From the NCBI GenBank assembly GCA_014905635.1, contig CM026547.1, positions 2,728,001 to 2,792,000 of the forward strand: DNA of 64,000 nucleotides, read 5' to 3'. Shown one piece after another: positions 11,182-62,400 of this stretch (position 1 is the stretch's first letter; each line of letters begins with the position of its first letter). The position numbers were made by a program, and so were the translations under genes. Origin of the DNA: Scenedesmus sp. PABB004. Its lineage: Eukaryota. The notes below the pieces were generated by a model. It saw only the letters and a program-made list of their open reading frames with translations. It was not told where the DNA came from and ran no database searches.

Positions 11182-12029
11182 TCACTTGTCCTCCTGCTTC
11201 TTGATCTCCGCCACGTTGAACGTGTCGCCCGCGACGCCCGTGAGCGCGATCTTGTGCACCCGCGTCGTGTCGGCGTCGTCCTGGTTGCTGTCGATCAGGA
11301 TGGACAGGATGTTGACGCTGTTGAACTGCGCGCGCCGCGCGGGCCCGGCGGTGGCGGCGGCGGCGGCGGGTCGGCGCGCGCAGCGACGACGGGAGTGCGG
11401 CGCGCGCGCCGGTTGCGCGCGCGCGGGTGCTCCGGGGCGCGCGCGCCGCGCGCCTTTGTGAGCTTGAGCGTGACCGGCTCGCCGCCGAGCTCCTTGCTGG
11501 TCAGCTCCAGCTGCTGCGCGCACAGCACCGCGTCGGCGTCGCTGAAGCCGAGGGACATGCGGTTGGTGAAGAGCTTGACCACGCGCGGTCCCTGGTCTTT
11601 GGGGCCCGTGATCGTGATCGAGTGGATGCGGACCTTCTGGTTGAAGTGGATGTTCAGCAGCAGCTGCGGCGCGTGTGCGTGGCGGGGCGGCGCGCGCGCC
11701 GCGCGTCGCGCGGGCGCCTGCGCGAGCCGCGCCAACCGCTGCAACGGAACGCACGCCCGCCGCGCCGCGCGTCGCGCCCGTGCGCGCACCTGCTCGTCCG
11801 TGTCCGACTCCAGGTACAGGCCGTCATCCTCCCGGTATCCCTGCGGCCGGCGGCGGCGCCCGTGAGCGCGGCGGGCCCGCCGCCGGCCGCGCAGCAGCGG
11901 CGGCGACGCCCCCGGCGCGCCCTGTTCGCCCCGCGCCTGCTTCAGCGCGTTGGCTGCTCCGTGGTTTGGCTGCTCGTTGAGGCATTCGAGGCAGGAGAAG
12001 TCGATGTGCTCGAGCAGGTCCTTGGCCAT
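11182..12029 (-). CDS. PITH domain-containing protein (proteasome-interacting, TXNL1 C-terminal-like)
   Basis: Exons 12029-11937, 11840-11790, 11663-11454, 11325-11182: MAKDLLEHIDFSCLECLNE..YLESDTDEQLLLNIHFNQKVRIHSI..GPRVVKLFTN..LKLTKFNSVNILSILIDSNQ; introns 1 and 3 are GC-AG. Confidence 0.9.
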
Positions 12030-12473
12030 TTTCAACGGCGCCGCTGCAGCTGGGTGCGCCGTGTGCGGGCGTGGCGGTGCAGGGCGGTGGAGGGGGCGAA
12101 GAACTGCGCGCTCGGCGTGCCCGCGACGCACGCGGGCGCGGCGGCGCTGCGGCGCGGCTGCTGAGCCCCGAGACCGCACGCCGTGCCCCTACGGCGCCTG
12201 CTGCGCCCGCCAGTGCTGCTCACCCCCCGCCGTCTCGCTCTGGCCTCCCTCGCGCGCTCCGCCCGGACGTCCGCGCGCGCGCCACGGCCGCCGCTGCCGC
12301 GCGCCCGCTGCTGCCGCCGCGCCATGCGCAGCCGTCGCCGACAGCAGCGAGGCGGCCTGCGCTGAGCAGTGGCGGTGTGCTGCCTGTGAGCAGCCGCACC
12401 GGCAAGCGGGGCGGGCGAGCAGCGGCGGCGCGTGCGCCCGCGCCCGCGCCTGCAGCAGCGGGCGCGGCGCGCG

Positions 12474-13925
12474 ATGCCGCGCTTCAAGACCACTTTCAAT
12501 GGCTACTCCGTCAAGTTCAGCCCCTTTGTGGAGAGCCGCCTGGCGGTGGCGACGGCGCAGAACTTCGGCATCATCGGCAACGGCCGCCTGCACATCCTTG
12601 AGGCGCGCGCCGCGCCGCGCCGTCCGCCGCATGCGCCGCATGCGCCGCATGCGCCGCCGCCGCCGCCGCCGCCGCCGGCGCGCCGCCGGCGTGCGGCCGA
12701 CCCCCTGCCGCCGCCGTCCCCGCCCGCGCGCCTGCGCGCGGCGCCGCAGATGACGCCGGGCGGGCTGGTCGAGGCTGCTGCGTTTGACACCGCGGACGGG
12801 CTGTACGACTGCGCGTGGAGCGAGGAGCACGAGAGCGTGGTGCTCGCCGCGAGCGGCGACGGCAGCGTCAAGGTCTACGACCTCGCCGCGCCGCCGGGGG
12901 CCAACCCGCTGCGCGTGTTCCGCGAGCACAAGCACGAGGCGCGCGCGCCGCCCGCAGCGGCGCAGCAGCAGCAGCAGGCCGCGGCGGCCGCGCCCACGCG
13001 CCGCCCGGTGTCGCGCGCGCGCGCCGCAGTGCTGCTGCCTGAGCTGGAACCTTCAGCGGCGGGACCTCTTCCTCAGCAGCAGCTGGGACGACAGCATCAA
13101 GCTCTACTCCATGGCGGGCCCCGGCGCGGTGCAGACGTTCCTGGGGCACTCCTACTGCGTCTACCACGTCGCCTGGTGCGCCGCGCCGGGGCCGCAACGG
13201 GGGGGGGGGGGGGGGCAGTGCAGCAGGCGCCAGCGGAGCAGGCGCAGCAGGCGGGGGTGGCGGCGCGGGCTGCGCAGCGGCACGGGCTGCGCAGCGGCGC
13301 GGGCTGCGCAGCGGCGCGGGCACACCCGCCGCGGCGCGCAGGAGCCCCGCGCACGGCGACGTCTTCCTGTCGGCGTCGGGCGACACGACGGTGCGGCTGT
13401 GGGACCTGCGCCAGCCCGCGCCGACGCTGGTGCTGCCGGCGCACGCGTTTGAGGTGCTCTCGGCCGACTGGTGCAAATACAACGACTGCGTCATCGCCAC
13501 GGGCAGCATCGACAAGACCATCAAGATATGGGACGTGCGCCAGCCGCAGCGAGAGCTCACCACGCTCTTCGGCCACTCGTGAGCGCGCCGCGCCGCCAGC
13601 AGCCGGGGCGGGGCGGGGACGGCCGCGGCGGGGCGCGCCGACTGACCGCCCGCGCCGCGCCGCCGCGCCGCCGGCGCGCAGCTACGCGGTGCGGCGCGTG
13701 CAGTTCTCGCCGCACGCGGAGAGCGTGCTCGCGTCGTGCGCGTACGACATGAGCGTCAAGCTGTGGGACTACCGCGCGCCCGAGGACGCGCTGCTGCGCT
13801 CGTGGGACCACCACAGCGAGTTTGCGATCGGCCTCGACTTCTCGCTGCTGCGCGAGGGCCTCATGGCCAGCGCGGGCTGGGACGAGTGGGCGTGCGTCTG
13901 GCACACCAGCGCGCCGGGGCCGTGA
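12474..13925 (+). CDS. PEX7: Peroxisomal targeting signal 2 receptor (peroxin 7)
   Basis: Exons 12474-12602, 12750-12938, 13030-13175, 13342-13578, 13682-13925: FNGYSVKFSPFVESRLAVATAQNFGIIGNG..FDTADGLYDCAWSE..SSSWDDSIKL..AHAFEVLSADWCKY..GHSYAVRRVQFSPH..HHSEF; first two introns GC-AG. Confidence 0.95.
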   Translation: MPRFKTTFNGYSVKFSPFVESRLAVATAQNFGIIGNGRLHILEARAAPRRPPHAPHAPHAPPPPPPPPARRRRAADPLPPPSPPARLRAAPQMTPGGLVEAAAFDTADGLYDCAWSEEHESVVLAASGDGSVKVYDLAAPPGANPLRVFREHKHEARAPPAAAQQQQQAAAAAPTRRPVSRARAAVLLPELEPSAAGPLPQQQLGRQHQALLHGGPRRGADVPGALLLRLPRRLVRRAGAATGGGGGAVQQAPAEQAQQAGVAARAAQRHGLRSGAGCAAARAHPPRRAGAPRTATSSCRRRATRRCGCGTCASPRRRWCCRRTRLRCSRPTGANTTTASSPRAASTRPSRYGTCASRSESSPRSSATRERAAPPAAGAGRGRPRRGAPTDRPRRAAAPPARSYAVRRVQFSPHAESVLASCAYDMSVKLWDYRAPEDALLRSWDHHSEFAIGLDFSLLREGLMASAGWDEWACVWHTSAPGP

Positions 13926-14196: not shown

Positions 14197-17100
14197 ATGC
14201 TGGGCCGCGTCGGGCGTAAGGTGGCGCACGGGGGCAAGGCGGGCCGCAAGTTCCGGCTCACCGTGTCCGTGGAGAAGCTGGACCACCTTCCCGCCTCCGT
14301 CAAGCGCTGCCGGGTCGTGTGGAGCCGCGGTCCGAAGGTCCAGATGACGGAGTGGCAGCCCGCGGCCAAGGGTGCGCGCCGGCGGCGGCGGCGGCGCGCG
14401 CCGACGACCGCCGCGCTGTCGGCGGCTGCGGCCGAGCGCCAGCGCGCGCGCGGGCGCAGGCGCGCGCCCGGTGGCCACGCCCCCGGTCACCCCGCGCGCC
14501 CCGCCGCCCGTCGCATGCGCACGCGCAGGCGCCGCGGTGTTCTCGCAGCAGCTCACGCAGATCGCGACGCTCTTCGGCGACACCAAGCACGGCTTCGAGC
14601 CCAAGGTGACGCCGCCCGGGCGTCCGGCCCGCGCCGACGGCGCGGGGCAGAGAAGTTGGCGGCGGCCACGGCCGCCGGGGCCGCGGGCGCGCGCCCACGC
14701 GCGCGCGATCGCCCGCTCCGCCCGCCGCCGCTCTGCAGGAGTATCGTTTCGCGGTGCAGGTGCCCGGCGGCCGCGGCGAGGAGGGCAAGACGCTCACCGT
14801 GGGCAAGGCCGACCTGGACCTGGCGTTCTTCGTGCTCGCAGAGGGCCAGCCGCAGAGCAAGCTGCTGCCCATCATGTTCAAGGCGCGCCGCTCACGCCTC
14901 CCCGCCGCTGCCCGCGCTCTGCGGCCGCCGCCCACACACGCGCGTCGCCGCCGCCGCCGCCGCCGCCGCGCAGGTGGGCGCCGCGTCGACGGGCTACCTG
15001 CGCCTGGTGGTCACCGCCGAGCCGGCGGGCGAGCTGAGCGACGGCGGCACGGAGGTGTCGGGCATGACCGGGTTCACCTCAAGCCATCTCCACGATGAGC
15101 AGGACCTGTCGGGCTTTGACGACGACGCCGGCGCGCAGGGCCCGCTCGCCAGCGGCAGGCGCTCGCCGCAGCCGGCCGCGCCCGCGCAGGCGGCCCAGCA
15201 GGGCGGCAGGGCGTCGCCGGCGCCCGGCGCCGCGGCGCAGCGCCCCAGCCGGCTGGGCGGCGCGCCGCCCGAGGGACAGCCGGCCGCGGCCGCGGCCGCC
15301 GCCGCCGCGCCGGCGGCGGGCAAGGCAGGGGCCGGCGGCGGCCGCGCCGCGCCGGCGCCGCAGCCGCAGGCGGCAGCGGCGGGCGACGCGGGCGGCGGCG
15401 ACGAGGGTGACGTGTCGCCGCTCAGCATCTCACCCATGGTGCGCAGGCCGGCCCCTCGCGTGCACGTCGGCGCGGGGGCACGCCATGCTGCCTGCACTGC
15501 CACCAGCAAGAGATCGAGCAACAGAGCCCGCCCCGCCCCGCCTGCCTGCGCGCCCGCCCGCGCCGCAGTCGTCCGAGCCCAGCTCGCCGCGCGGCGGCGC
15601 GCCCAAGCCCACCGCCCCCGGCCGCAGCGCCGGCAGCGCCAGCGTGCTGCCCGGCCAGGGCGGCCGCGCCGCGGCAGCGACCGGCGCGGCCAAGGGCGCG
15701 CGCGCTGAGCTACTGGGCGCCGCGCCGGCCAGCGGCGGCGGCGGCGGCATGGCCGCGCCGCGTGACGGCAGCAGCCGCAGCGTGGCCGAGCTGTCAGAGG
15801 ATGAGGCGCGGGCGCAGCTGTTTGGTGGCAGCGCCAGCGCTGCCGCCAAGGCGGGGCGCGGCGCGGCCAGCGGGGGCAGCAGCGCAAGGCCTGGCGGCGG
15901 AGCCGCCAAGGCCGCGGGCAGCGCCAGCAGCCAGCCGCTGGCGGCGCCGGGCAGTGCTGGCCCGCTGGCGCGCGCCAGCAGCGGCCGCAGCAGCCTCAGC
16001 GGCGCCAGCGCGACCGCCATGGGCGCCGGCGCGGCCGGTGACAAGCCGGCGAGCGGGCCTGCAGCCCCCGGGGCGCGGCGGGGCCTGCTCGACCGCACCC
16101 GCCCAGCGGAGGACCCTGGCGCTGCGGAGCGCACAGAGGCCGGCAGCGCCCACGGCGGCGCTGCCGCCGGTGCCAAGCACAGCCTGTCGGACTCGGACGA
16201 CGAGCAGCCAGCTGCAGCGCGCAGCGGCCGCCCGCCGCAGCCGCTCAAGGCGCCCGGCGCGCGGCCGGGCGGCGCGGCGCAGCCGGCCGCGCCCGGCGCG
16301 GCGCTTGCGGCTGCCGGCGGCGGCGGCGCAGCGCTGGGCGGCGGCGGCCTGGCCGCTGAGAACGAGAAGCTGCGGGCTCAGCTGGCGGCGCTGCGGGGCC
16401 AGGCGGCCGAGGCGGAGGACGCGCGGCGGCAGGCGCGGCTGGCAGCGGAGAACGCGGCGGCGGAGCGCGACGACTACCGGGCCCAGGCGGCGGAGCTGCA
16501 GCAGCAGCTCCAGGAGGTAATGCGGCCCGGCGGGTGGAGGGCGGGGAGGGGCGGGGGCTGGGCGGCGGGGCGCACGCACAGCAGCGCCCGCGCGTGCGCG
16601 GGGGGAGGGGGAGGGCAGGGAGCACGTGCACGGGCGGCGGTGGCCGCCGCCGACAGGCCCTGCCGCGCGGCGGTCGCGGTGCGCCGCGCTCCGCCAGGCG
16701 GTGGTGGGCATGCTCACGCCGGAGGAGGGCGAGGAGCTGCAGGCGCAGGTGGCGGCGCTGCAGCGCCAGCTTGACGCGGCGCAGCCGCTGACCCTGCCGC
16801 AGCAAGCGCCAGCGTCGCAGCCGCGCGACGAGGAGCTGGACGCGGCGCGCGCGCAGCTCGCAGCCGCCAGCGCGGAAGCGGCGGCGCTGCGCCAGCAGCT
16901 GGGCGAGCAGCAGCGCAGCGCGGACGCGGCACTGCAGGACCTGCAGCAGCAGCTGTTTGAGCTGGCCAGCGAGCGGCTTGAGGAGCAGCACCAGCTTGCG
17001 CTGGCTCAGCTCCAGGCGCAGCTCGCGGACGCACAGCGCCTGGTGGAGCAGGGCGCGGCGGAGGCGGCGCGTGCGGCGCAGGAGCGCAGCGCCCTGGCGG

Positions 17101-19262: not shown

Positions 19263-20978
19263 TCAGCGGCGCAGCGCCGCGAGCTGGTCCTTGAAGTCTG
19301 GCATGTGGTGCATCACCGGCGCCGCGAGCGTGAAGAGCGCGTTGAGGTCGACCAGCTTCTCCAGCAGCCGGAACCCCAGCGCCACGCCGCCCACGTCCTG
19401 CGCGCCCGCGCCCGCGGCGGCGCGTCAGCCGTCGGCCGCCGCCGCGCCGGCCGCGCCGCCGCGCCGCCGGCCCCGTCTCCGCACCTTCCAGATCGTGCGC
19501 CCGATGCTGGCAAAGATGACGTCCGGCAGCTCGTCCGGCCCGACCGCAAGCTTCTTGAACGCCTCCATCATGCCAATCTTGATCGCGCCCTGGCCGTCGT
19601 AAAAGCTGCGGGGCGGCGGCGGCGGACGCGGCGGCGGATGCGGCGGCTGCGCCTCGCGCGCGGCGGCTGCACGTCTGCGCGCGCGCGGCGCGCGTCCCCG
19701 CCCGCCCGCCCGCCCGCCCGCCCGCCCGCCCGCCTGCCCCGGCAGGCGCCGCACCGCGAGGCCACGGGCGAGGGGTGCACCGCGAGGACGTCGATGCCGA
19801 GCCACTTGACCTCGGGCGCGAGGCTGATCGCAAACATGCTCAGGAAGGCCTTGGTCGCGGCGTACGTCACCGCAAACGGGCTCGGCAGCACCGCCGACGC
19901 GCTGCTGGTGAAGACGAAGCAGCCCTTGAGGCTGGCGTCCATCTGGCGTCCGCGCGGCGGCACGGGGCCGGGTGAGGGGCGCGCCCCGGCCTGGCCCAGG
20001 CCCGAAAGCGCGCGGCCGCCGCCGTCGCCGCCGCCGCCGCCACTCAGGCGCCGCCGCGGGCGCGCGCGCCGTCGCACCATGCGCTGCAGGAAGTGGTGCG
20101 TGATGTTGACCGCGCTCACGGCGTTGCACTCAATGTTGGCCTGCACCTGCTCGATCGACCTGCGCGCGGCGCGCAGCGCGGCGGGCCGTCGCCGCGCAGC
20201 AGCCGCCGCCGTGCTGCCGCCGCGACGCAGCCGCGCCGCGGCTGTCGCCGCCGCCGCGCGCACCGGGCGTAGAAGAAGCCGGAGAGGATGTAGCCGGCGT
20301 TGCAGAACACGATCTGCACGTTGATGTCGGCGGTGGCCTTGAGCACGGCCGGCATGTAGCCCGGCCGCCCCAGGTCCACGCCCACCTGCGCGGCGGCAGA
20401 GGCAGAGGCCGAGGCGCGCTGCTGTCGGCGCGGGCGCCCCGCGGCCGCTGGTGCGGCCGCCGCCGCCGCCGCCGGGGCCGCCGCTCTGGCTCTGTCCGGC
20501 GGGGCGCGCCTTGCGGAACTCTGCGCCCGGGAACTCCTCGCTGAGCTCGTCGGTCGTCGCGTCCAGGTCGGCGCCCGGCAGCGCGACCAGCACCACCGAC
20601 AGCCCCTGCTGCGCCAGGCGCTTGGCGATGGACTTGCCGATGCCTGCGGTGCGCCGCGCGCCGCGCGCCGCGCGCCGCCCGGCCGTCGGCGCGCGCAGCA
20701 GCGGCGGCGGCCGCGCCCGCGCCACCCGCAGGCCGCGCCGCGCCGCCGCCGCGGCCCCGTCGCGTCGGGAGCTCCCCGGGCGACGCGCAGGGGGCGGCCG
20801 CGGGCGCCGCACCCGTGCTGGCGCCGGTCACGAGCGCCCACTGCGCATTGTAGCGCGCCTTCAGGTTCTGATACTTGTAGTACGTCCCGCACAGCGTCTG
20901 GAGCAGCGCGTAGCTGCCAAAGGACAGGAAGACCACCGCCAGGCCCAGCCAGGACAGGGGCGTGAGCAGCCAGCCCAT
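19263..20978 (-). CDS. Short-chain dehydrogenase/reductase, very-long-chain 3-oxoacyl-CoA reductase (KCR/HSD17B12)-like
   Basis: N-terminal TM segment, WALVTGASTGIGKSIA (TGxxxGxG), CNAG, TSS, YAATK (YxxxK); 6 introns, one GC-AG (donor 20509). Confidence 0.85.
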
Positions 20979-23846: not shown

Positions 23847-26250
<2,404 letters not shown>

Positions 26251-26351: not shown

Positions 26352-27891
26352 ATGGCGCGCGCACTGCCGCTGCCGCTGCTGCTGCTGGCAGCAGCGCTCG
26401 CCGCCGCTGCCGCCGCCGCCGCCCGGCCCGAGCTGGCCTTTACCGCCGCCGCGGCCCGGCCGGAGGTGTTTGGCTTCTCCGTCGGCGGCCCGGGCGCGAA
26501 CTATTCCGGCTACGACTGGTCCGTGCTGACGACGATCGGGTGGAACACCGACACTGAGCTCATGGCCCTCGCGCGCGCCCACGGCGCGGCGGTGCACGTC
26601 GCCGCCGGCGCCGACGCCGCGCTCGCGCGCGCGATGGCCGACCCTGCCCGCCGGCGGGCGTGGGTGCGCGCCAAGGTGGTGGACGTGGTCAAGGCCGGCG
26701 CGGGCGGGGTCAACTTTGACTACGAGGCCCCGCTCCCGCCCGGCGGCGTCGGCGCCGCCGCCTACACCGCGCTCGTCGCCGAGACCGCGGCCGCGCTGCA
26801 CGCCGCGCTGCCGGGCGCGCGCGTCTCGGTCGACGTCCCCTGGTCGCCGTACGACGTCGACGGCCGCAACTTTGACTGGCCCGGCCTCGCCGCGGCGGCG
26901 GACACGCTGTTCGTCATGGCCTACGACACACAGTCACAGGCGCGGCACCTCCGCCGCACGCGCACGCGCACGCGCCCCAACCAGCCCCGGCGCCCCAGGC
27001 CGGGGCGCGCCCAGCCACGCGCGCGCCGCGCCGCGCCGCGCAGGTGCTCGGCCGCTGCGTCGCGGGCGCGAACGCGCCCCTCGACGCCGTGCGGCGCGGC
27101 GTGCGGCAGTGGCTCGCGCTGGGCGTGCCGGCGCAAAAGCTCGTGCTCGGGCTGCCGTGGTACGGGTACACCTATGCCTGCGTGCCGCCGCCCGGCGCCG
27201 GCGCCGGCGCGCCGTCGCCATCGCCTGACGTCGACCTGTGCGCGATTCGGGCGGTACCCTTCCGCAACGTGTCGTGCAGCGACGCCGCAGGCGCGCAGCT
27301 CTGCTTCAGCGAGGTCATGCAGCGTGAGCGCGCCGCGCCGGCGGCGCCACGCCGCAGCGATGCAGCCGCCGCCGCCGCCGCGGTGCCTCGCCGCGCGCAC
27401 GAGCCGCCGCCGCCGCCGCCGCCCCCGCCGCCGCCGTGCCGCGGCCGCAGTGCTGCACCCCGTGCACGGCCGCAACACGACGCCCGTGCGCTGGGATGCG
27501 GGCCAGGCCAGCCCCTACTTCAACTACCGCGCCAAGGACGGCACCATCCACCAGGCGCGCGCCGTGCAGCGCCGCGCGCCGTGCGCCGCCACCGCCGCGC
27601 CGCGCCGCGTGCCCGTCGCCGCCGCGCGCCCGCCGCCGCCGCGCCGCGGCGCGAGCCGGCGCCGGCGCCGGCGCGGCGCGCAGGTTTGGTACGACGACCC
27701 CGCGAGCCTGGCGCTGAAGTACGCGGTCGCGGCGGAGGCGGGGCTGGCGGGCGTGGGGGTGTGGAACCTCGACTGCCTCGACCACCGCGGCGGCGCGGCC
27801 GCCCCGGCCGCGGCGCAGACGCGCGCGATGTGGGACGCCGTGGGCGCCGCGGTGGCGGCGATGGGCGGTGGCGACAGCGGGGGCGGCGGCA

Positions 27892-27934
<43 letters not shown>

Positions 27935-29028: not shown

Positions 29029-29062
<34 letters not shown>

Positions 29063-30156: not shown

Positions 30157-30190
<34 letters not shown>

Positions 30191-35780: not shown

Positions 35781-37548
35781 ATGGCCGCCCGCCTGCTCGC
35801 CAGGCACAGCGCCTTGGCGCTGCGCAGCCGCCGCTGTTACGCGCCGCTGGCGAGCGGCCGGCCGCTGAGCGCGCTCCCGGCGGCGCCCGGTCTGGGCCGC
35901 CGGCTGCCCGACCTGCCGGGCATGGTCCGCGACGGCGCGGCGCTGTCGCTGGAGGAGACGCTGTCGGCGGTTGCGGTGCCCCCGCGTGCGGGCAACCTCG
36001 GCCCCCGCGTGGAGCACCTCGAGGTCGGCGCCGACGGCGACGGCGCGCTGCTGTCGGAGGTGATCGCCGCCGCGCTGGGGCTGCCGCCCTGGTTTGCGCG
36101 CGAGCTCATCCGCTTCGGCGCGGTGCACACGTGCGCCATCATGCCGCCGCCCGCACCCGCGGCGGCGGCGCGCATGTCGGACGTGCACCTCGCGCGCGTC
36201 GCGGCGCTGCGCGCCGCCGGCGTGGCGCGGCACGGGCGAAACCCCAAGCTGCAGCACCCGCGCCGCGCGGCGGCCGATGCGCCCGTCACGGCCGGCGCCT
36301 ACGTGCGTGTGCACGTGCACCCCAAGCGCTTCCCTGCCGCGCACGCGACCGACTGGCGCGCCGCCATCCTGGCCGACGCCCCGGAGTTCGCGGCAATTGA
36401 CAAGCCGCCTGGCGTCCAGGCACGGCGCGCGGCGCGCGGCGCGCGGTGCGGGGGCCGCCCACAGGGCCGGCGCCGACGGGCGCGCGGCGCGCCGCGCCGC
36501 GCCGCAGGTGCCGCCGACTGTCGACAACGTGCTGGAGAGCGTCGCGGCGTGCGCGGGCGCGGCGCTGGGCCTGCCGCAGGGCGCCCTGCTCACGACGCAC
36601 CGGCTCGACGTCGGCACGTCGGGCGTCGTGCTGCTGGCCAAGACGCCCGGCTTTGCGGCGCACTTCAGCGCCCTGCTGCGGGACAAGCCCGGGCACCTGG
36701 TCAAGACGTATCGCTGCCTCACCGCCGCGCCGCCGCCCACGGGGCCGCTCGTGCACTGGGCGACGATGCGCACGCGGCGTGCGGGCGAGCCCGCGCACAC
36801 GCGCATGCGGGGCGCGCCGCCGCCCCCGGGCGCGGGCACGGGCGCGGGCGCGGCGCGCTGCGAGCTCGTGGTGCTGTCGGTGGAGCGCGTCGCGCTCGCC
36901 GGCGCGGCGGCAGCGGAGTGGGGCCCGGCCGCGTGGGAGAGCCAGCTGCAGCTCGTCACGGGGCGCACGCACCAGATCCGCGCGCAGCTCGCGGCGGAGG
37001 GCTGCCCCCTGCTCGGCGACCAGCTCTATTCCGCGCTGGCAGGCGCCTGGCGCGAGGAGGACGCCGCCGCCGCCACCGCGGCAGCCGCCGGCGGCGACGG
37101 TGCTGCCGGCAGCAACGGCGCGGCGGCGCCGCGGCAGCCGAGCGGGGAGCAGCTGGAGGGGGACCAGCAGCCGCAGGGAGAGCAGCGGCAGCAGGAGCAG
37201 CAGCAGCAGCAGCCACAGGGACAGCAGCAGCAGCAGGGGGTGCAGCAGCAGCAGGGGGAGCAGCAGCAGCAGCCGCTGGACGTGGAGCAGCAACAGCCAG
37301 GCGACCACGAGCCTGCGACGCCGCCCGCCGACACCGGGCAGCCGGCGGCGCCGGACGGCGCCGCGTGGTCTCGCATCTACCAGGAGGACCCCAGCCGTCC
37401 CATCGGTTTGCAGGCGGCGTGCCTGCGCGTGCGCGACGCCGACGGGCGCATGGCGGCCGGGCTGGCGAGCGCGCGGGGCGGCAGCGGCAGCGAGGAGGGC
37501 TGGGTCGAGTTCAGCGCGGGCACGCCGTGGTGGCGGCAGGAGGCCTGA
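35781..37548 (+). CDS. RluA-family RNA pseudouridine synthase, organellar (plant PUS6-like)
   Basis: YVRVHVHPKRFP, IDKPPGV|QVPPTVDN, HRLDVGTSG (catalytic Asp), KTYRCL, LVTGRTHQIRAQLA..PLLGDQLY, IGLQA; one GC-AG intron 36420-36507. Confidence 0.9.
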
Positions 37549-40420: not shown

Positions 40421-40468
<48 letters not shown>

Positions 40469-41054: not shown

Positions 41055-43834
<2,780 letters not shown>

Positions 43835-44354: not shown

Positions 44355-47300
44355 ATGGCGCTTCTGGGCGGGCTGGTGGAGCGCGAGCTGCTGGGCGGCC
44401 GCCGTGAGCAGCAGCGCTGGCGGCGGCGCGCGCGGCGGGCCGTGGGGGGCTGTGGGGGCCCGCCGCAGCCGCCGGCCGGCTGGGTGTGCGGCCCCAGCTC
44501 ACCCTTGACACCCCGCCCGGCCGCAGGCGGCGCGGTGCTGCCGGGCGCGTTTGCGCACGCCTTCACCACGGCAGCGCCGCACGCGGGCGTCATCCGCATC
44601 GACCCCGAGGGCGAGCCCTGCCCGCCCTACGCCATCGCTTACAACCAGGCAGGCGCCGCGCGCGCGACCGCCGCGCGCGCAGCATGCCGGCTGGACGGAG
44701 TCGGCGCGCGCGGCAGCAGCCTTGCGCGGCGGCCGTGCGCGGCGCGGCCTCACGCGGGGCGCGCGTGGCACGCAGGTGGCCAACGGCTGCCGCTTCCTGA
44801 CCGTCGGCGACGAGGAGGGCTGCGTGTCGATTGTCGACACGAGCGCGGAGGCGCTGCCAGAGAGCCTCTACACCGACGCGGCGCGCCCGCCGCGCGCCAA
44901 GTGGGTCGCGCACCACAACACCATCTTCGACATGGCCTGGGCAAAGGCACGCGCGCCCGCGCGCTCGCAGGACAGCTCGCAGGACAGTTCCCGCGCGCGC
45001 GGCGCCGGCGTCCGCGCGCCCGCGCGGCGCGCGCTCACGCCGCGCCCGCGGCGGCGCCCGCGCCCGCGCTGGCTCGTGCGTCCGCAGGGCGACTCGCTGC
45101 TCTACACCGCGTCGGGCGACCAGCACGTGGGCGTGTGGGACACGGCGGCGGGGCGGCTGCGCGCGTACTGCGCGGGCCACGGCGGCAGCGTCAAGGCGGT
45201 CTGCCCGCACGCGACCGCGCCCGACGTGTTTGCCTCGGGTGCGCGCGACGGCGGCATCGTGGTCTGGGACCTGCGCAGCCCCGCGCGCTGGAGCGCGGCG
45301 CGCCGCCGCATGCAGCTCGGCCCCGTGCTGCGAATCGACAGCGCCGCGCCGCCGGGCGAGGCCTGCGGCGCGGCCGCGACGCCCAGCGGCGGTGGCGGCG
45401 GCGGCGGCGGCGGCACGCCCGCCGGCAGGCGGCGCAGCGGCACGCCCGGCGGCGGCCGCGCCGGCGCCGGCGGCGCGGGCCGGCGCAGCGTGACGTCGCT
45501 GCTCTTTGTGCGCAGCGAGCACACCCTGGTCAGCAGCAGTGACGTCGACGGCGTGGTCAAGCTCTGGGACCTGCGCCGCCTCACGTCGCCGACCGGCGGC
45601 ATCGTGCTGCCGCCCGCCTGCGGCGCGCGGCGCGGCGGCGGGCGGGCCGGCGCGCGCGGCGATGACACCGGCACGTGCTGGCTGGGCCTGGCCTGCCCCA
45701 GCCGCAGCAGCAGGCCGGCGGGCATCACAAGCATGGCCCTCTCGCCCGCGGGTACGCGCGGGGCGCCGCGCCCGCCGCGCCCGCTGCGCGCCGCCGCGCC
45801 CCGCGCCCCTTGGCCCCTCCCGGTCTGTGCACACGCGCGTGCCGCACCTCTGCGCCGCCCCCGTGCCCCCATCATCCCGCCAGGCGACATGCTGCTAGTG
45901 AGCTCCATCGACTCAGCGCACTACCTGTACAGCCTGTCCGCGCTCGACGCGCCGCCGCTCGCCACGCTCGTGGGCCACCGCGCCGACAGCTTCTGCGTGA
46001 AGGCGGCGTTCAGCCCCGACGGCCGCCACGTGCTCAGCGGCAGCAGCGACCGCTCCGCGTACGTGTGGAGCGTGGCCGACCCCGGCGCGCCGCCCGTGGC
46101 GCTGCCGGGGCACGCGGGCGAGGTCACCGCGGTCGCGTGGTGCCCCGGCGACGCGTGCCAGCTCGCGACCGCGGCGGACGACGCCACGCTGCGCGTGTGG
46201 GCGCTCGACCGGTCCAACCCGCGCTACGAGCGGCACTATCAGCAGTTCAACGCCCGCGCCCCGCCGCCCGGGGCGCCGCCGCCGGGCCTCTGGGAGCGCC
46301 TGCTCGGCGCCGCCGCCGCGGCGCCGCCCGCCGTGGCGCCGGCGCCGCACGGCGCCGGGGCGGCGAGGCCAGCAGCGCGGCGACGGCTGGCGGGCGGCCA
46401 GGGCCCAGCGCGTGCTCGCCCTCCACCCCGCAGCTGCCCTTCTGGCGCGGCGGCGCGGGGGAGGAGGGCGCTGGCGCGCCGCTCAGCGGCGGCGGCGCGC
46501 CGGCGGCGGCGCGCGGCGGCAGCGGCAGCGCGGCCAGCCCGCTGCCCGCGGCGTGGGCGGGCAGCAGCAGCGCGTCGCGCTCGCGGCAGCCGCAGTCCAC
46601 GCCGCGCCTGCGCCAGCTGCTCATCTCGCAGCAGCTGCGGCCAGCCAGGCCGCTGTCGCCGCTCGCCGCCAGCCCCGAGCAGGAGCAGGAGCAGCCGCCG
46701 CAGCAGGAGCAGCCGCCGCAGCAGGAGCAGCAGCAGCAGCTGGAGCAGCTGGAGCAGCTGGAGTCGCCGCCGTGGCGCGGGCTGGCTGACGCGGGCGCCG
46801 GGGGCGCCAGCCCGGCGGCGCCGCCGGCCGCGCAGCAGCCCGCCGTGCAGCAGCCGAGCGCGTGCCCGGCCACGTTCGAGGCCTGGATGAAGGCCCTGGC
46901 CCCCAGCCCGGCCGCCAGCCCCGCCGACGCGGCGCAGCAGCCGGACCAGGGCCGGGCGCCCAGCGCCGCGCCCGGCAGCAGCTCGCAGGACGGCTCGCGC
47001 CCGCGGTCGGCGGCACGTCCGGGCCAGCTCACCACGCCGCTGCTCGACCTGCCCACGCCGCTGCGCGAGCAGCGCGCGGAGCAGGCGGCCGCGCTGGAGG
47101 AGGAGCGGCTGCTGCAGGCGCAGTTCAGCCGCCTCGCCTGCGGCGCCGCGGCGGGGCCCTGGGACTGCCGGCCGGACGAGGCCGCCGGCGCGCCCTCGGG
47201 CGGCGGCCGCGCGGCGGGCGCCGGGCTGAGCGGGCGCGTGCTGCAGGACGAGTTTGAGGTGTACTGCGACGACGGCGGCGGCGCCGACGCCGGCGCGCGC

Positions 47301-48699: not shown

Positions 48700-48744
48700 A
48701 ATGACGAGTGCTCGCCCGCTGCAGCGTGCCGAGGGGCGCGCGCG

Positions 48745-55304: not shown

Positions 55305-56321
55305 TCACTGCACCGGCGGCAGCACGTTGTCCTGCGCGCCGCGGCAGCAACGGCGGGAGCGCGGGCGTCGCCCCGGCGCGCGGCAGCGCAGGCGGCAGCG
55401 CACACAGCGTGTGCGCGGGCGCGCGCGCCGGCGTGCCTGGAACTGGCCGATGACGTTTCCCGGGGGGCTGTAGTGGCAGACGTAGAGCGAGCAGCGCGGC
55501 GCGTAGCCGCACCCGAGCTCGCGCACGCCGCGCCAGACGATCTCGGTGAAGTGCCCCGTCGCGTAGCTGAACTGCCCGTCCCAGCGATACGACGCCTCCT
55601 CGGCCATCCACGCGCGCATCGCGGCCCCGAAGTTGGGAAAGTTCTGCGCCAGGTTCTCGCCCGGGCCCGAGTGCTGGAAAACACATCGCTCGGCCCACGC
55701 CTGCGCGGCCGCGGCGAGGTCGGCCGACCAGCCGAGCGGGCCGGCGCGGTGCGCGGCGCGGGCGGCGTTGTGCGCGTCCCAGACGCCCTGGAGCTCTGCG
55801 CGGGGCGGGCGGCGGCGCGTCGGCGGCGGCGCGCAGGGCCGGGCCGCCTCGCGCGCGTGGCGCGGCGCGACGTCCCGGCGCCGCACCCGGGTCGCCCAGG
55901 GAGCCCGTGCCGCCAGCCCGGCTCGGCGCGCTGGCCGCCAGTGGGGCCTCCTGCGCCACCGCGGGCGCGGCCAGCGCGGCCGGCGCGGCCGGCGCGGCCG
56001 GGGCAACAGCTGCCGGTGTGCCAGCCTGGCCGACGAGGAACGTTGTGCCGGGCGGCGCCGTCACCTGCACCAGCTGGCCTGCCAGGGCGAAAAGGGCGCG
56101 GGGCGAGGGCAGGGGACGCGTGAGCTGCGCTCGAGCCCGCGCCGGCTGCCAGTCCACGAGCCAGCGGCGCGGAGCTGGCCGCCCGCACCCGGCGCGGCCA
56201 CGACGACCTGCTGCCTGAGCTCGCGCGCGGAGCAGGCGGGAAGGGAGGTGGCCGCCAGGACGGCGAGGACGGCAGCCAGCAGGGCGGGGCGGCCGCACGC
56301 GGCGCTGGTTGCGCTGCGCAT
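55305..56321 (-). CDS. Secreted CAP/SCP (PR-1-like) protein
   Basis: Signal peptide; [54 protein letters not shown]; last intron GC-AG (donor 55436). Confidence 0.9.
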
Positions 56322-56695: not shown

Positions 56696-59172
56696 ATGGA
56701 GCTCGCGCCGGCGCTGGCCGCGGGCGGCGCTGCTGCTGCGGCCGAGTCGCCGCTGCGGGCCTGCGCCTCAGTGGGCGCGCTGGAGCGCGCGCTGGACTCG
56801 CTGGACCTCAGCGGAGGCGGGCTGGCGGCGTCGCAGAGCTTCAGGTGCGGCGCCGCTTCTTCTTGGCGCGGGCGGCGGGCGCGCGCAGCGGGCGCGCGCG
56901 CTGCTGGCTGGCGCGCCGGCCGAGCTCCGCCGAGCGCCGCCCGCGGCGCCGGCGCACGCCCCGCAGAAACCTGGAGCACCTGCTGCTCGCCGCGCAGCAG
57001 CAGCAGCTCCGCCAGCTGCGCCGGCTGCAGATGCTGAAGCGGCAGGAGGAGATGGCGGCCGCGCAGCAGGCGGCGTGGCAGGCCAAGGAGCAGGCGGAGC
57101 AGCTGAGGCTGGAGCTCAAGGCCGCGCAGCAGGCCGAGGTGCGCGAGCGTGCTGCCGCCGCCGCAGCAGGCGGCCGGCCGCGTCGTGGCCGACCGCGTCG
57201 CGGCCGCGTGTGGCCTGGCGGCGAGCGTCGCGCCCCCCCCCCTCTCCCCCGCCGTGCGCGGCCCCCCAGGAGGCGGCGCGCAAGGCGGCCAAGGCGGCGG
57301 AGGTGGAGGCGCGGCGCCGCGCGGCGATGGCCGCGGCGGAGCGCCAGGAGGCGGCCGCGCGGCGCCAGCTCGAGGCCAAGCTCTCGCGCGCCAAGCCCCG
57401 CCTCGACGCGGCAGTGCTGGAGTATGAGCGCCGCGCGAGCGCCGCGCGCGCGGCGGCGCGCATGGTGCGCACGCAGGCGCGCAAGGAGCAGGTGCTGGAG
57501 GAGAAGCGCGCCGGCATCCTCGCGGCCGAGGCGGCGGCGGAGCGGCGGCTGCAGCAGAAGCAGGAGGTGCGCGGCGCGTGCGTGCAGGGGCGCCAGCGGC
57601 GGCGGGCGCGGCCGCGCCGCCGCGCCCCGCCTGCCGCCCGCAGCCCACGCCCGCGCCGGCCGGCCCGCCCGCAGCTGCGCCTGCTGCAGGAGGCCATCAA
57701 ACGCGAGGAGGAGTCCCTGGCGGAGGAGCACAGGCGCGCATGCGCAGCGGCGCGGCGCGCGGCGCCCCGCCGCCGCGCCGGCGGCGCGGCGCCGCCGAGC
57801 CCCCCGCCCTTGGGCCCGCAGGAAGGAGATCCAGGCGCGCGCCAAGGCGGACGAGGCGGCCAAGGTGGCGTTCTACGAGGCCAAGCAGCGCGAGCGCGAG
57901 CAGCGCGTCGCGCAGGTGTGCGCGCGGCGCAGCAGGGGCCGGCGCGCGCCACAGCACTGCGGCCGACGCGGCCGCCGCCGCCGCCGCCGCCGCCGCGCAG
58001 CGCCAGCAGGAGGCGGAGCTCCTGCGCGGCCTGCGCGCCGACGAGGCGCGCGCGCGGCACGAGTGGGCGCGCTGCCGCGCCGACGAGGTCAGCCTGCAGG
58101 AGGAGGCGCGGCGCGAGGCGCTGGCCAGGAACCTGCAGGCCAAGCTCGCGCGCGCCGAGGCGCTGGCCGCGGAGCGCGAGGCCGTGGCGGCGCAGATCAA
58201 GCGCGCGCTGGACGCGCAGGAGGTGCAGGTCCAGCAGGTGCGCGCCGCGCCGCGCGCGGGCGGGCGGCGCACGCCGCCAGCCCGCTCGCCGGCGCCCGCG
58301 GGCGGTGACGGCGCGCGCGCCGACGCCCGCGCCCGCCGCGCACGTGCGCGCGCAGGTGCTGCAGCGCTGCGCCGCGACCGGCAAGCTGGAGCTGCCGGCC
58401 GACCTGCTTGCCACCCTGGCGGGCCTGCAGACTGCGGTCGCCAGCCCCTACGCCCGCAGCAGCGCCGGCCGCGCGCGCAGCGCCAGCCCCGGCCGCAGCA
58501 GCCCGGGCGCCAGCCCTGGCCGCAGCAGCCCGGGCGCCAGCCGGCCCGGCAGCCCCGTCGGCCGCGCGGTGAGCCGCGGGGGCGGCGGTGGGGGTGGGGG
58601 CTGGATCGGGCGCGCCCGAACCCAGCTGGCGGCGTCCGTCGCCCACGCCGCCAACGAGCCCGGCCGCCCGCCCCGCCCGCCCCGCCCGCCCGCCGCGCCG
58701 CGCCGCCAGTCGTCGTGCTCGCCCGCCAGCCCGCGGCGGGTGCTCCCGGCCGAGGTGCCCATGGGCCCGGGCCTGACCGCGGGCGCGGCGGCCGCGCTCG
58801 CGCGGCAGCAGGAGGCGGCGCTGCAGCGCGTGCTGGAGGAGGAGATCATGGCAGAGACGGCCCGCGAGGCAGCGCTCGCGCGCGTGCGTGCGCCGCGTGC
58901 CCCGCGTCGAACGAGCGCGCGCGCGCGCGCGCTCGGGCGCGCCGCCGCGCGCCGACGACGCGCGGCCCTCCGTCCGCGCGCAGACGGCCGACGCCGACGA
59001 GCGCCGCCGCCTGATGCGCGAGTTCACCGACGAGCGCGCCGCGGCCAAGGCGCGCATCCTCGAGGCGGGGCGGGCCCTGCTCGCGCGGCGCGAGGCCGCC
59101 GCCAGCGGCGTCGCCGCCGGCCGCCCGGCGGCGGCGGTGGGCGCGGCGGCGGCGGCGGAGGCGGAGGCGTAG
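56696..59172 (+). CDS. Coiled-coil E/R/K/A-rich protein of unknown function
   Basis: Eight exons splice in frame (NLEHLLLAAQQ.., EAARKAAK.., KEIQARAK.., ..LQRVLEEEIMAE..ERRRLMREFTDERAAAKARI..*); no diagnostic motif. Confidence 0.7.
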
Positions 59173-59467
59173 CGGCGGGGCGCGCGGGCCGGGGCGCAGG
59201 GCGCAGCGGCGGAGCGGTAGCGGCCGGCGCCGCCGCTCCGCCCCCGCCATTCCCACGGGCACGCGGACCCGCCCGGCACGCGCACGCGGTGCCAGATCGC
59301 CGGCAGCCCTCGCGAGCGCGTGCGGGAAGCAGCTGCTTTTGGTACTCCCCGTCGCCGCCCCCGCCGCGCCCGCTCGCGCGCGTCGTTCGCGGTCCTCGCC
59401 GGGCATGCCGCGCCGGCGGACCAGCAGGCGGTGCCGGGCCTGAGCGGAGCGGGCCTCGCCGAGCACG

Positions 59468-62400
59468 ATGGAGGGCGCGGAGGCGGCCGGCGCGGGCGTC
59501 GGGTGCGTGTCCCCCCGCGATGGGAGGCCCGGGATCGGCGCGGCGGGCGGCCCGGGCGGCCGGGGCGGGCGCCGGGCGACTCGTGCAGCGCAGCGAGCGG
59601 CCGGGCGGCCGCGGCGCGGCGCTGTGCGATGGCTGGGTCGACCCAGCAGGCCGCCGGCGTGGCCCGAAGCCCGCGGGGGGCGCGCGGGCGCGCGGGCGCC
59701 GGCCATCGCCCACCAGCCTGCGCCCGCCCTGCGCGCCCCGCGCCGCCCGCGCAGGTGGGCGGCCCTGCCGCCGGAGCTGCTGCGCCGCGTCGTGGGGCAG
59801 CTGCTGTGCGACTGGCTGTACCCGGCGCCGGCGCGGCCCAGCGACGCGCTGCTGCCCCTGCGCGCGACCTGCCGCGCCTGGCGCGGCGTCGTGGACGCGG
59901 ACGTGACGCACCTGGGCGCCACCACGCCCTGCGTGGAGCCCGGCTTCCTGGCGGCGCACTTTCCCGCCGCCACGAGCCTCGACCTGAGCCGCTACCAGCG
60001 CAGCGCGCAGGAGCTCTTCCCCGCGCTCGCGCGCCTGCGCCTCACGTGCGCGCGCCGCCGCGCCGCGCGCCGCCGCGCCGCGCGCCGCCGCGCCGCGCGC
60101 CGCCGCGCCGCGCGCCGCCGCGCGCCCGCGCTCGCGTCGCGCAGCGCGCAGCGCGCACGAGCGCGGACGGCGGCGCGGCCGTCTGCGCGGGCGGCGGCGC
60201 CGGCAACGGCGCTCACGCGCGCCGCGCGCCGCGCGCAGGTCGCTGGTGCTGGCGGACCCGTGGGACCCGCCCATGGCGCTGCCGACGCAGTCGCTGACCG
60301 CGCTCAGCCACCTGAGCTTCCTCGCGGAGGGCCTGCTCGTGCCGCGCCTCGCGGCGCAGTTCTGCGCGGCCCTGGGGCAGCTGCAGGCGCTGCGCCACCT
60401 CGCGCTCAGCCGGCTGCAGCTGTCGTCGCAGGCGGCGCAGCTGCTGGGCCACACGCTCACGCAGCTCCCGCACCTCGAGCTGCTCGCGCTCTCGGGCGGC
60501 GCCGCGCCCGTCGGCGCGGCGGAGCTGTACGTGCTGCTCAACGGTGCGGCGCGCAAGCAGCATGCGCGCGCCGCGCAGCGCAGCGGCCGGCTGCCCGGGC
60601 GCGCCGCACGCCCCGCCGGCGCGCGCGCGCGCTCACGCCGCGCCACGCCACGCCGCGCCGCGCGCAGTCGAGCTGCCGGGCCTGCGCGCGCTCGAGCTGA
60701 CGCGCCTGGGCGTGCGCATGCTGCCGCTGAGCCTCACGCGCCTGTGCGGGCTGAGCCGGCTGACGTTCAGCGGCGAGATGCTGCGCAACGTGCAGCTGCG
60801 CGACGAGCTGCGCCAGCTGGAGGGCCTGCGTGTGCTCGACATCTCGGCCAACCTCGCGGAGCAGCTCCCCGGCGGCGTGCTGGAGCTCACCGGTCTGCGC
60901 GAGCTGCACGCGGGCATGAACCGCCTGGGCATGCACATGCACAGCTTCCGCCGCATGGAGGCGCTCGAGGTGCTCGTGCTGGCGAGCAACAAGCTGCTCG
61001 CGGTGCACCACAGCCTCTGGGCGCTCACCAGCCTGCGCCGGCTCGACCTGGGGCACAACAACCTCAGCGAGCTGCCCGCCGACGTCGGGCAGCTCGTGGA
61101 GCTCACGGTGCGGCGGCGCACAGGCGCAGGGGGGCCTCGCGGCGCGGCCGCGCGGAGCAGCCGCCGCCGCGCGCGGCGCGTGCGCGGCAGCGCGCCCACG
61201 CCGCGCGCCGCCGCCGCCGCGTCGCGTCCGCGCCGCGCAGTACCTCAACGTGTGCCACAACTTTCTCACCGCGCTGCCGGCGGGGCTGAGCTGCCTGGTG
61301 GCGCTGGAGGAGCTGGACGTGAGCCTCAACACCGACATGCGCGAGCTGCCGCAGGGCCTGGGCCAGCTCTCGCGGCTCACGCGCCTCACCGCCAGCCACA
61401 TGCGCCTGAAGCAGCTGCCGATGTGAGCCGGCGGGGCACGCGGCGGCCGCCGGGGCGCGCCGCCCGCCGGCGCGCGGCGCGCCTGCGCGCGCCGCCGTGG
61501 GCGACGCTGACGGCCCGCCCGCCCGCTGCTGCACACGCAGGGACGTCGGCGGGCTGGTGTCGCTGGTGCACCTGGACGTGTCGCACAACAGCCTGCACCA
61601 CCTGTCGCCGCAGCTGTCGTGCCTGGCGGGGCTCACGCACCTCGAGGCCAGCGACAACAAGCTCCACCAGAGCGCGGCGGTGCCGGAGGAGCTGGCCAGC
61701 CTCACCGCGCTGCGGGTGCGCGTGCGGCGCAGCGGGGCGCCGGGGCGCGGCACGCGGGCGGGCTCTAGCTCACGCCGCCATCGCCGCCGCCCCCGCTTGC
61801 CGCCAGGTGCTGCGCCTGGCGCGCAACCGGCTGCAGTCGCTGCCCGAGGCGCTGGGCTGCTACAGCCGGCTGCAGGTGCTCGACTGCAGCGGCAACCGCC
61901 TCACCAGCGTGCCGCGCGTGGTCGGGCGCTGCACGGCGCTGCAGCAGCTGCTGATGGCGAGCAACCGCCTGCGGGGGCTCACGAGCGGCATCGGCAACCT
62001 GGTGCGGCTGCAGGTGCTCGACCTCAGCCACAACCAGTACCGCCACCTGCCGACCATGACCGGCGACCTCACGCAGCTCCAGGCGCGACCCCGCCTGCCC
62101 GCCCGCGCGCGCCGCGGCGCCGACACAGCCGCCGCCGGCGCCGACGCTGCCGCCGCCGACGCTGACGCGCCGCCGCCGCGCTGGGGCTTGTGCCGCGCCG
62201 CCGCGCAGGCGCTGCTGCTGGAGGACAACCAGCTGGAGGACCTGCCCAGCAGCTGCAGCGCGCTGCTCAAGCTCACGGCGCTCACGCTGAGCAGCAACCG
62301 CCTGCACGTGCTGCCGCCCGCCATCGCGCGCATGAGCGGCCTGGCCAGCCTCAGCCTCGCGGACAACCCGCTGCTCGGCCGCGACGCGGTGGTGCTGCAG

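Follow-up and report, generated by a model that had tools for sequence, protein, structure and literature searches.

In this study, we report that close to one fifth of the introns in a stretch of the Scenedesmus sp. PABB004 genome are probably genuine U2-type GC-AG introns, with GC pressure being tolerated at optimal donors. The window, that is, the whole stretch of DNA analysed, is 64 kb long and has a GC content of 79% overall and of 76-81% throughout; it is a single window and may not represent the genome. The analysis assigned it to a chlorophycean green alga related to Raphidocelis and Monoraphidium. An earlier note on this DNA had proposed 18 GC donors among about 86 introns, lying in 13 genes, always in an AG/GC context (the slash marks the exon-intron border) and nearly all reading GCRCG. 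Sequence inspection of the window revealed AG/GC at the 18 proposed coordinates and on the proposed strands. The introns began with GCGCG in 14 cases, GCACG in three and GCAGG in one (GCRCG in 17 of the 18), and all 18 ended in CAG, so that the borders were GC...AG throughout (Table 1). Their distribution across 13 genes was confirmed, and the proposed proportion is bracketed by our own tallies, in which GC-donor introns were 18 of 93 in the curated set (19.4%) and 27 of 111 in the uncurated model set (24%). Curation removed 18 of the 111 model introns, nine with GT and nine with GC donors and none with homology support, on the grounds of a length below 70 nt, gene merges, a 1128-nt tandem repeat, low-complexity sequence or a poor score; seven of the nine removed GC candidates lacked the exonic AG, and these nine were discarded because of their length and because nothing supported them, which does not prove them wrong. 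The 1128-nt tandem repeat was found by a repeat search in the 27-32 kb region, where Tandem Repeats Finder gave no match to it, the longest period being 500.

It must be noted that AGGC occurs 397 and 421 times on the two strands of the window, and AGGC[GA]CG 85 times. Therefore, the motif alone is no evidence for a donor, and the evidence is the gene structure. The common donor in the window is G/GTGCG, and the GC donors repeat this signal, the T at +2 being replaced by C (AG/GCGCG). None of the 18 matched RTATCCTT, the U12-type donor consensus quoted in PMC2846911, and U12-type introns were consequently rejected. The branch-point motif CTRAY was found in just 12 of the 93 introns.

Table 1. 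GC-AG introns of the window (coordinates are window positions)
Gene	Intron	Coordinates	Strand	Donor	Length (nt)	Remarks
PITH-domain gene	1	11841..11936	-	CAG/GCGCGG	96	phase 0
PITH-domain gene	3	11326..11453	-	AAG/GCGCGC	128	
PEX7	1	12603..12749	+	GAG/GCGCGC	147	
PEX7	2	12939..13029	+	GAG/GCGCGC	91	
NT-C2 / coiled-coil gene		14883..14973	+	AAG/GCGCGC	91	ab initio only
Short-chain dehydrogenase gene	2	20386..20509	-	AAG/GCGCGC	124	moderate support
Acetyl-CoA acetyltransferase (thiolase)	4	24570..24667	-	AAG/GCGCGT	98	acceptor corrected from gene-finder model
Acetyl-CoA acetyltransferase (thiolase)	5	24365..24512	-	CAG/GCGCGA	148	junction EINQ/AFSVV
GH18 chitinase-like gene	1	26940..27043	+	CAG/GCGCGG	104	
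GH18 chitinase-like gene	3	27555..27683	+	CAG/GCGCGC	129	junction HQ/VWYDD
RluA-type pseudouridine synthase gene		36420..36507	+	CAG/GCACGG	88	probable
U2AF large-subunit gene	in RRM1	38761..38869	+	CAG/GCGCGC	109	phase 1
Ketol-acid reductoisomerase	5	43168..43336	+	AAG/GCGCGG	169	
CDT2-like WD40 gene	2	44649..44775	+	CAG/GCAGGC	127	
CDT2-like WD40 gene	3	44947..45087	+	AAG/GCACGC	141	
CAP/PR-1 gene	last	55332..55436	-	CAG/GCACGC	105	probable; in frame; ab initio
Coiled-coil gene		57734..57821	+	CAG/GCGCGC	88	phase 2; ab initio only
F-box/LRR gene		62083..62208	+	CAG/GCGCGA	126	in frame; moderate support

Splicing at these borders restored a conserved protein to the residue at 12 of the 18 sites, as judged from how the exons line up with homologues, with solved structures or with Pfam profiles; at 20509, 55436 and 62083 the support was moderate, 14883 and 57734 were placed ab initio, and 36420 has an in-frame GT rival. 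In the PITH-domain gene, exon 1 extended to Pfam position 36/37, the 17-residue unscanned exon 2 corresponded to positions 38-54 and exon 3 started from 56, while intron 3 separated profile positions 56-128 from 129-173, with continuity between 128 and 129. The two PEX7 junctions, HILE/MTPGG and HKHE/CCCLSW, were gapless with respect to 10 of 10 full-length homologues and 10 of 10 homologues, respectively. The thiolase exon upstream of intron 4 ended at residue 305 of PDB 6aqp_A and the last exon started at residue 325 (position 50 of the Thiolase_C profile), leaving a gap of 19 residues that is the size of the 57-nt exon 24513-24569. For intron 1 of the GH18 gene, the last aligned residue of the upstream exon (195 of 196) fell on Pfam position 185 and residue 6 of the downstream exon on position 190, which places its residue 1 near 185 and leaves the profile continuous; the junction YDTQSQ/VLGRC was gapless in homologues. 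At intron 3 of this gene, Q immediately precedes [VIMQW]W[FY]D in most of about 60 homologues. The upstream exon of the U2AF gene aligned to residue 42 of PDB 5ev1_A, followed by the split-codon residue and one more, and the next exon aligned from 45, whereas the exons of ketol-acid reductoisomerase met at 372/373 of PDB 1qmg_A, the top such match. In the CDT2-like gene, the exon before intron 2 ends in ITYNK in the relative protein P0125 as well, where V (GTN) comes next, and the exon after the intron is also shared; the Tetradesmus protein P0122 was collinear with intron 3 at MAWAK/NDS.

With respect to the remaining sites, the profile positions flanking 20509 agree, to within 1-2 residues, with the combined length of exons 3 and 4, which is a comparison of lengths. 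The yeast Pry1 chains 5ete_A and 5jys_A each extend 8 residues past the aligned end, which equals the 8-residue last exon of the CAP/PR-1 gene. In the F-box/LRR gene, splicing preserves an exact 23-residue leucine-rich-repeat register, according to a manual reading of the model protein, and retention of the intron would add 42 residues. In a PDB search with the RluA-type gene, the downstream exon had no matches at 1e-6 and the upstream exon chance matches only; the coordinates of a per-exon NCBIfam scan were too coarse to place 36420 and 20509. For the NT-C2 exon 14739-14882, no homologue was found at E <= 0.001.

The sites were also recovered by a gene finder of our own, a two-strand Viterbi model whose donor matrix was built from GT donors only, with +1 and +2 ignored, and whose background was non-periodic sequence; a single-strand version was dropped because of merged genes and shadow-frame readings. 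With GC donors permitted, the model chose the 18 sites for penalties from 1 to 4 nats, and 16 of them when the penalty was 5 nats, and the total score rose from 4201.6 with GT donors only to 4360-4447. The GT-only model was wrong at all 18 places, in 13 of the approximately 20 genes of the window, shifting the donor to another GT at 13 sites, retaining the intron at two (PITH intron 1 among them) and skipping a small exon at three. The expectation that standard gene finders would mis-model many of these genes was thus borne out, and this is the practical point for annotation.

It could be argued that hand splicing produced the GC donors, the true donors being nearby GT dinucleotides or the introns being retained coding sequence. 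An in-frame GT does lie within 30 nt at nine of the 18 sites, six intron lengths are divisible by three, and the introns at 11936, 55436 and 62083 contain no stop and preserve the frame, so that the reading frame stays open if they are retained. However, at 12 sites any other donor adds or deletes residues in a way that the conserved proteins disallow, and sliding of the junction cannot yield GT-AG in these sequences. In addition, the GT rivals score poorly: the in-frame GT at 36414, 6 nt upstream of donor 36420, has a score of -2.73 vs 2.26 for the GC donor, and the in-frame GT at 27564 one of -0.66 vs 4.44 for donor 27555. The GH18 homologues that align there have no 3-residue insertion, which is further evidence against 27564. 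No GT is present within 30 nt of donors 38761 and 44649. We therefore consider an artefact of splicing very unlikely.

Regarding the exon side, AG preceded all 18 GC donors, compared with 35 of the 75 donors with GT (Fisher p = 9.5e-6), although the donor matrix rewards AG and both the invariable AG and the stronger consensus are thus partly a detection bias. The claim that GT donors tolerate other exon ends is in agreement with the 40 of 75 lacking AG, as compared with none of the 18 GC donors. GC donors had the higher exon-side score (2.13 vs 1.13 for GT donors, p = 2e-5), the intron-side score did not differ between them, and G was present at +5 in 18 of 18 GC donors. Reportedly, GC-AG donors adhere more closely to the consensus at their other positions. 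Their donor sequence in other organisms is GCAAGT, while the intronic part here is GCGCG. On the acceptor side, G at exon +1 was found in 15 of 18 GC and 47 of 75 GT introns, which is not significant (p = 0.16). Sixteen of the 18 GC introns were in phase 0, an excess explained by the exon ending in AG, given that 26 of the 35 AG-ended GT donors were also in this phase.

The window can be taken as a natural experiment on the T at +2, and its data quantify how selection on the 5' splice site depends on context when composition bias is extreme. C makes up 87% of the pyrimidines inside introns, which can be regarded as the neutral value, while the GC share was 34% among AG-ended donors (18 of 53) and 0% after other exon ends (0 of 40). 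Since C/(C+T) is 0.87 inside introns, T at +2 is clearly selected for, and more weakly so where the exon ends in AG. The earlier note had GC pressure converting T to C wherever exonic AG compensates; this was too broad, as 35 AG/GT donors persist and GC is found in just 18 of the 53. In the mechanism that we favour, GC-biased substitution pressure, by mutation bias or biased gene conversion, would drive the +2 T towards C, and the C would persist solely at 5' splice sites whose remaining contacts are optimal (exonic A at -2 and G at -1, plus G at +5), T being maintained by selection at the other donors. Compensation would presumably operate through U1/U6 pairing and composition bias would be the cause of the GC donors, and on the sequence evidence we infer that RNA is spliced at them in vivo.

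A different view is that the spliceosome of this lineage is altered, in the U1 5' end, the U6 ACAGAGA box, U1C or Prp8, and accepts C at +2 as a regular donor class. The usual GT donor consensus is GTAAG/GTGAG. The GT consensus of the window is unusual (GTGCG) and, together with the high GC share (18 of 93), this leaves few positions for U1 pairing. Nevertheless, GC donors are tied to the most favourable exon context (AG in 18 of 18) and remain far below the neutral 87% C, which resembles tolerance by ordinary machinery rather than free acceptance. Moreover, GC-AG introns of other eukaryotes are spliced out by the ordinary major spliceosome (PMC4028052; PMC6310983), so that an adapted spliceosome is not required. 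An Rfam scan of the window gave no matches and no snRNA gene. We regard an altered spliceosome as unlikely, and it is similarly improbable that GC has become a second regular class of donor that depends on exonic AG and is backed by changes in the U1 5' end, U6, U1C or Prp8. If it had, a share of about 20% across the genome would exceed any other known from the green lineage.

Comparison with relatives bears on tolerance of GC pressure as the preferred explanation. At four sites the orthologous donor is GT in relatives: 12939, in seven loci (e.g., L078, GAG/GTGCGCGG); 44947, where V follows MAWAK in genomic ORFs of four relatives; 26940, where V (GTN) follows QSQ in genomic ORFs of two; and 44649, in one (P0125). 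This fits a putative T-to-C change in this lineage. The PEX7 donor 12603, in contrast, is GT in L046/47, L056/57 and L067/70 but GC in L061, L064 and L078, three independent metagenome algal contigs with 57-68% GC; it is therefore older than the extreme composition of this genome, and not every case is due to that composition. GC pressure with compensation is, in general, partly supported: the AG-only context and the GT of relatives speak for it, and the persistence of AG/GT donors and the old donor 12603 against it. Sequencing or assembly errors turning T into C at the donors are hardly credible: no support was found for them, 18 independent errors would be needed, all at +2 and all after AG, and the GC at 12603 recurs in those three contigs.

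High GC-AG use has already been published for Emiliania huxleyi, and the window is a further case, in a GC-rich green alga. According to Feldmesser et al. (2014, BMC Genomics 15:148, PMC4028052), GC makes up 56-60% of the donors of this haptophyte, whose genome has 65% GC; RT-PCR confirmed nine GC junctions, and the authors attribute the GC-AG excess to genomic GC content. Both are GC-rich algae with a large GC-AG share, a canonical acceptor and mispredictions by GT-preferring ab initio models. They differ in that the green algal share, predicted here from DNA, is about 19% at 79% GC; GC donors do not outnumber GT donors as in Emiliania, either in the curated (19%) or in the uncurated set (24%). 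The strict exonic AG rule seen in this window is not reported for E. huxleyi in the available text of PMC4028052.

In plants, GC-AG introns average 1.2% over 121 annotations (Pucker and Brockington 2018, PMC6310983), and the share in this window is about 16 times higher; in both cases these are U2-type introns that open with GC and close with AG. The usual figure of around 1% thus agrees with the plant average and is exceeded by E. huxleyi and, as computed by us, by two green algae at 6-7%. From the supplement of PMC6310983, where major non-canonical introns comprise GC-AG plus AT-AC, we computed 5.7% for Chlorella sorokiniana (7090 of 124,435), 7.0% for Micractinium conductrix (8057 of 114,347) and 3.2% for Tetrabaena socialis (2139 of 66,369); these shares are also raised, but lower than here, and the species are trebouxiophytes or volvocaleans, not Selenastraceae. 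Annotated GC-rich green algae thus stand at 3-7% and the Monoraphidium neglectum genome has 64.7% GC, which, with a single window sampled at 76-81% GC, leaves some room for real GC donors whose share of about 20% is local to unusually GC-rich DNA and falls to a few per cent genome-wide. We consider this less probable than not, given that the 18 sites are scattered evenly along 51 kb, in 13 genes unrelated to one another, and that nothing sets the window apart.

Among the papers searched, none dealt with raised GC-AG use in Selenastraceae or Chlamydomonas. In the public annotation of M. neglectum, the nearest annotated relative, 19 of 67,746 introns (0.03%) are major non-canonical in the table of PMC6310983, a count that reflects either GT-only annotation or real rarity, and probably the limit of the annotation. 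With almost no annotated GC-AG introns in M. neglectum, Selenastraceae proteomes may carry many small errors.

The frequent use of GC-AG introns in this DNA is confirmed. The GC content is 76–81% along the entire window, and the A/T positions show a clear three-base periodicity, on and off in blocks of 100–400 nt, as expected of a eukaryote whose introns are short and rich in GC. The closest named matches of a PEX7 exon were from Raphidocelis subcapitata and Monoraphidium neglectum (88% identity each), and a transcript-sized contig matched it at 92% identity; these matches place the organism among the chlorophycean green algae, within the Selenastraceae or close to them. Each of the 18 coordinates proposed as GC donors by the earlier note is the first base of a GC with an exonic AG directly before it on the stated strand. 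The claimed AG|GC context (exon end|intron start) therefore holds throughout, as does the statement that nearly all donors read GCRCG (GCGCG in 14, GCACG in three, GCAGG in one). Nevertheless, AGGC occurs 818 times and AGGC[GA]CG 85 times on the two strands of the window, so the motif alone is uninformative in such DNA.

Independent gene models were obtained with our own two-strand Viterbi gene finder, with codons scored as log-odds relative to a background learned from non-periodic stretches, donor and acceptor matrices trained iteratively on GT-only models, and a donor matrix blind to +1 and +2. The GT-only run gave 20 genes and 105 introns (score 4201.6). When GC donors were allowed at a cost of 1 to 5 nats each, the score ranged from 4447 to 4338; all 18 sites were chosen at penalties of 1, 2, 3 or 4 nats, and 16 of them at 5 nats. 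They were distributed over 13 genes, the number originally noted.

GC-AG donor sites by gene, in window coordinates
Gene	GC sites	Donor coordinates	Strand
PITH-domain protein	2	11936, 11453	-
PEX7	2	12603, 12939	+
NT-C2 / coiled-coil protein	1	14883	+
Short-chain dehydrogenase	1	20509	-
Thiolase	2	24667, 24512	-
GH18 chitinase-like protein	2	26940, 27555	+
RluA-type pseudouridine synthase	1	36420	+
U2AF large subunit	1	38761	+
Ketol-acid reductoisomerase	1	43168	+
CDT2-like WD40 protein	2	44649, 44947	+
CAP/PR-1 protein	1	55436	-
Coiled-coil protein	1	57734	+
F-box/LRR protein	1	62083	+

At penalty 3, nine further GC sites were chosen (1699, 7650, 32135, 46252, 47396, 52445, 54461, 63596 and 63860), and no homology support was found for them. 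Five of these introns were only 35–53 nt long and that at 7650 was 62 nt, real introns here being at least 75 nt. The donor at 32135, with TGA immediately after it, produced a false gene merge: it wrongly joined to its neighbours a small K/A/P-rich gene (31124–32134) with AKKATPKK-type repeats resembling a histone H1 tail, which lies after the GH18 repeat and before a large ORF rich in glutamine. The tail of the CDT2-like gene may contain an intron at 46252–46433 with no good GT or AG|GC donor, for which the model took AAC|GCCCGC. An ORF at 1669–10892, very long (about 2600 aa), largely of low complexity and in parts WD40-like, is probably the WD40 gene excluded in the earlier note, and its intron calls (1699, 2571, 7650 and 10242) are unreliable.

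Twelve of the 18 junctions were fixed to the residue by homology, either by searching single exons and comparing the coordinates on either side or by aligning fetched homologues with the models. In the PITH-domain gene, the Pfam profile runs from 56 to 128 in one exon and from 129 to 173 in the next, and this continuity fixes site 11453; exon 1 stops at profile position 36/37, and the interval from there to 56 corresponds to a 17-aa exon, which fixes site 11936. The PEX7 junctions HILE|MTPGG and HKHE|CCCLSW were without gaps in all ten full-length homologues. (The third intron of this gene, a GT intron, contains a run of about 17 G at 13200–13216.) Against the PDB chain 6aqp_A, the upstream thiolase exon reached residue 305 and the last exon began at 325; the 19 residues between them are exactly a 57-nt exon (24513–24569), which corrects the acceptor picked by our own model. 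The GH18 profile was unbroken across 26940, and homologues were gapless there (QSQ|VLGRC) and at 27555 (HQ|VWYDD). In most of about 60 GH18 homologues listed, Q immediately precedes [VIMQW]W[FY]D, and no 3-residue insertion was found in the homologues aligning there, which argues against the use of an in-frame GT at 27564. The last exon of this gene and its downstream sequence form a tandem repeat at 27701–30400 (copies to about 30900), in three copies 1128 nt apart and 93–95% identical, which our models linked into a single gene. In the U2AF large subunit, alignment with 5ev1_A gave an exon to residue 42, a split-codon residue plus one residue, and then a 21-aa exon from 45; the latter had weak E-values (0.03–0.05), yet all its matches were to U2AF65 at the collinear place. 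This gene (37789–40772), itself encoding a splicing factor, thus carries a GC-AG intron within its first RNA-recognition motif. The ketol-acid reductoisomerase junction fell at 372|373 of 1qmg_A. In the CDT2-like gene, a Tetradesmus protein was collinear at MAWAK|NDS, and both junctions had the same exon ends in a relative's genomic ORF.

Among the remaining six sites, three GC-AG introns are moderately supported: at 20509 the profile positions on either side match the summed exon lengths to within 1–2 residues; at 62083 the 23-residue LRR register continues exactly across the spliced junction, in our own reading of the model protein; and at 55436 the 8-aa last exon corresponds to the 8 residues past the aligned end in each of two yeast Pry1 chains. 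The introns at 11936, 55436 and 62083 are in frame and stop-free, so frame alone cannot exclude their retention. The candidate GC donor at 36420 scores 2.26 and has an in-frame GT rival, 6 nt upstream of it, that scores −2.73; searches with this gene gave no homologue alignment. The candidate introns at 14883 and 57734 come from ab initio models, and no homologue was found for the exon searched from the former gene.

From the 111 model introns, 18 (nine GT and nine GC) were dropped for being shorter than 70 nt, merging genes, lying in the tandem repeat at 27.7–31 kb or in low-complexity tails, or having poor donor scores. The curated set of 93 comprised 75 GT and 18 GC donors (19.4% GC; 27/111 uncurated), in agreement with the noted share of about 20%. 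All 18 GC donors followed AG, compared with 35 of the 75 GT donors (Fisher p = 9.5e-6); the other 40 followed GG, CG, TG, AT, AC, TC, GC or CC, the tolerance previously described. By context, GC was used in 18 of 53 donors after AG and in 0 of 40 after other ends, where the AG-favouring donor matrix makes GC donors harder to detect. Since C/(C+T) is 0.87 in intron interiors, T at +2 must be under selection everywhere, with weaker selection after AG. On the intronic side the two classes are alike (G+3, C+4, G+5): GC donors are GTGCG with C at +2, and their intron-side score is not above that of GT donors. The excess of phase 0 among GC introns (16/18; 26/35 in AG-ended GT donors) is due to the AG exon end. 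Acceptors were CAG in all 93 introns and GCAG in 80; a CTRAY branch-point-like motif was present in only 12, and the interiors contain only 14% A+T.

Relatives' genomic contigs are read straight through by gene callers, so that the residue following an exon end reveals the donor. V (GTN) followed MAWAK (44947) in four relatives, QSQ (26940) in two and YNK (44649) in one. Scanning metagenome contigs with the PEX7 alignment gave 80 loci, mostly without the two PEX7 introns. The 12939 position had a GT donor in seven loci (L056, L057, L064, L066, L069, L074 and L078), for example GAG|GTGCGCGG compared with GAG|GCGCGCGC in the window. At 12603 the donor was GT in L046/47, L056/57 and L067/70, and GC in L061 (GAG|GCGCGCGCC), L064 and L078 (CAG|GCGAGT), from contigs of 57–68% GC, so this GC donor is conserved across several algae. 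Thus, several GC donors are T-to-C changes toward the window genome, and one or more are of earlier origin and occur in other algae too. The explanation first offered, that GC pressure converted the +2 T wherever exonic AG compensates, is partly supported, by the restriction to AG and these T-to-C changes, but most AG-ended donors keep GT and the donor at 12603 is older. The postulated adapted spliceosome is not needed as a cause.

Elevated GC-AG use is already known from GC-rich algae, and the present case is of this kind. The mean over the 121 plant annotations summarized in PMC6310983 is 1.2%. In Emiliania huxleyi, PMC4028052 reports GC-AG at 56% of 241 hand-mapped junctions (nine confirmed by RT-PCR), attributed by its authors to the 65% GC genome, and mispredicted junctions in ab initio models; the window has the lower share at a higher GC content. 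From the supplementary counts of PMC6310983, we computed major non-canonical shares (GC-AG plus AT-AC) of 5.7% in Chlorella sorokiniana, 7.0% in Micractinium conductrix and 3.2% in Tetrabaena socialis. The corresponding value for Monoraphidium neglectum (19/67,746, 0.03%) may represent real rarity, although it probably reflects GT-only annotation. A literature search gave no report of elevated GC-AG use for Selenastraceae, the family in or near which this alga falls and for which the observation is new; the context rule is unusually clean.

The consequences for annotation are clear. As had been anticipated for standard gene finders, the GT-only model was wrong at all 18 places: the intron was retained in two, a small exon was skipped at three (both thiolase sites and 38761), and another GT was used in 13, up to 84 nt before or 63 nt after the GC site.
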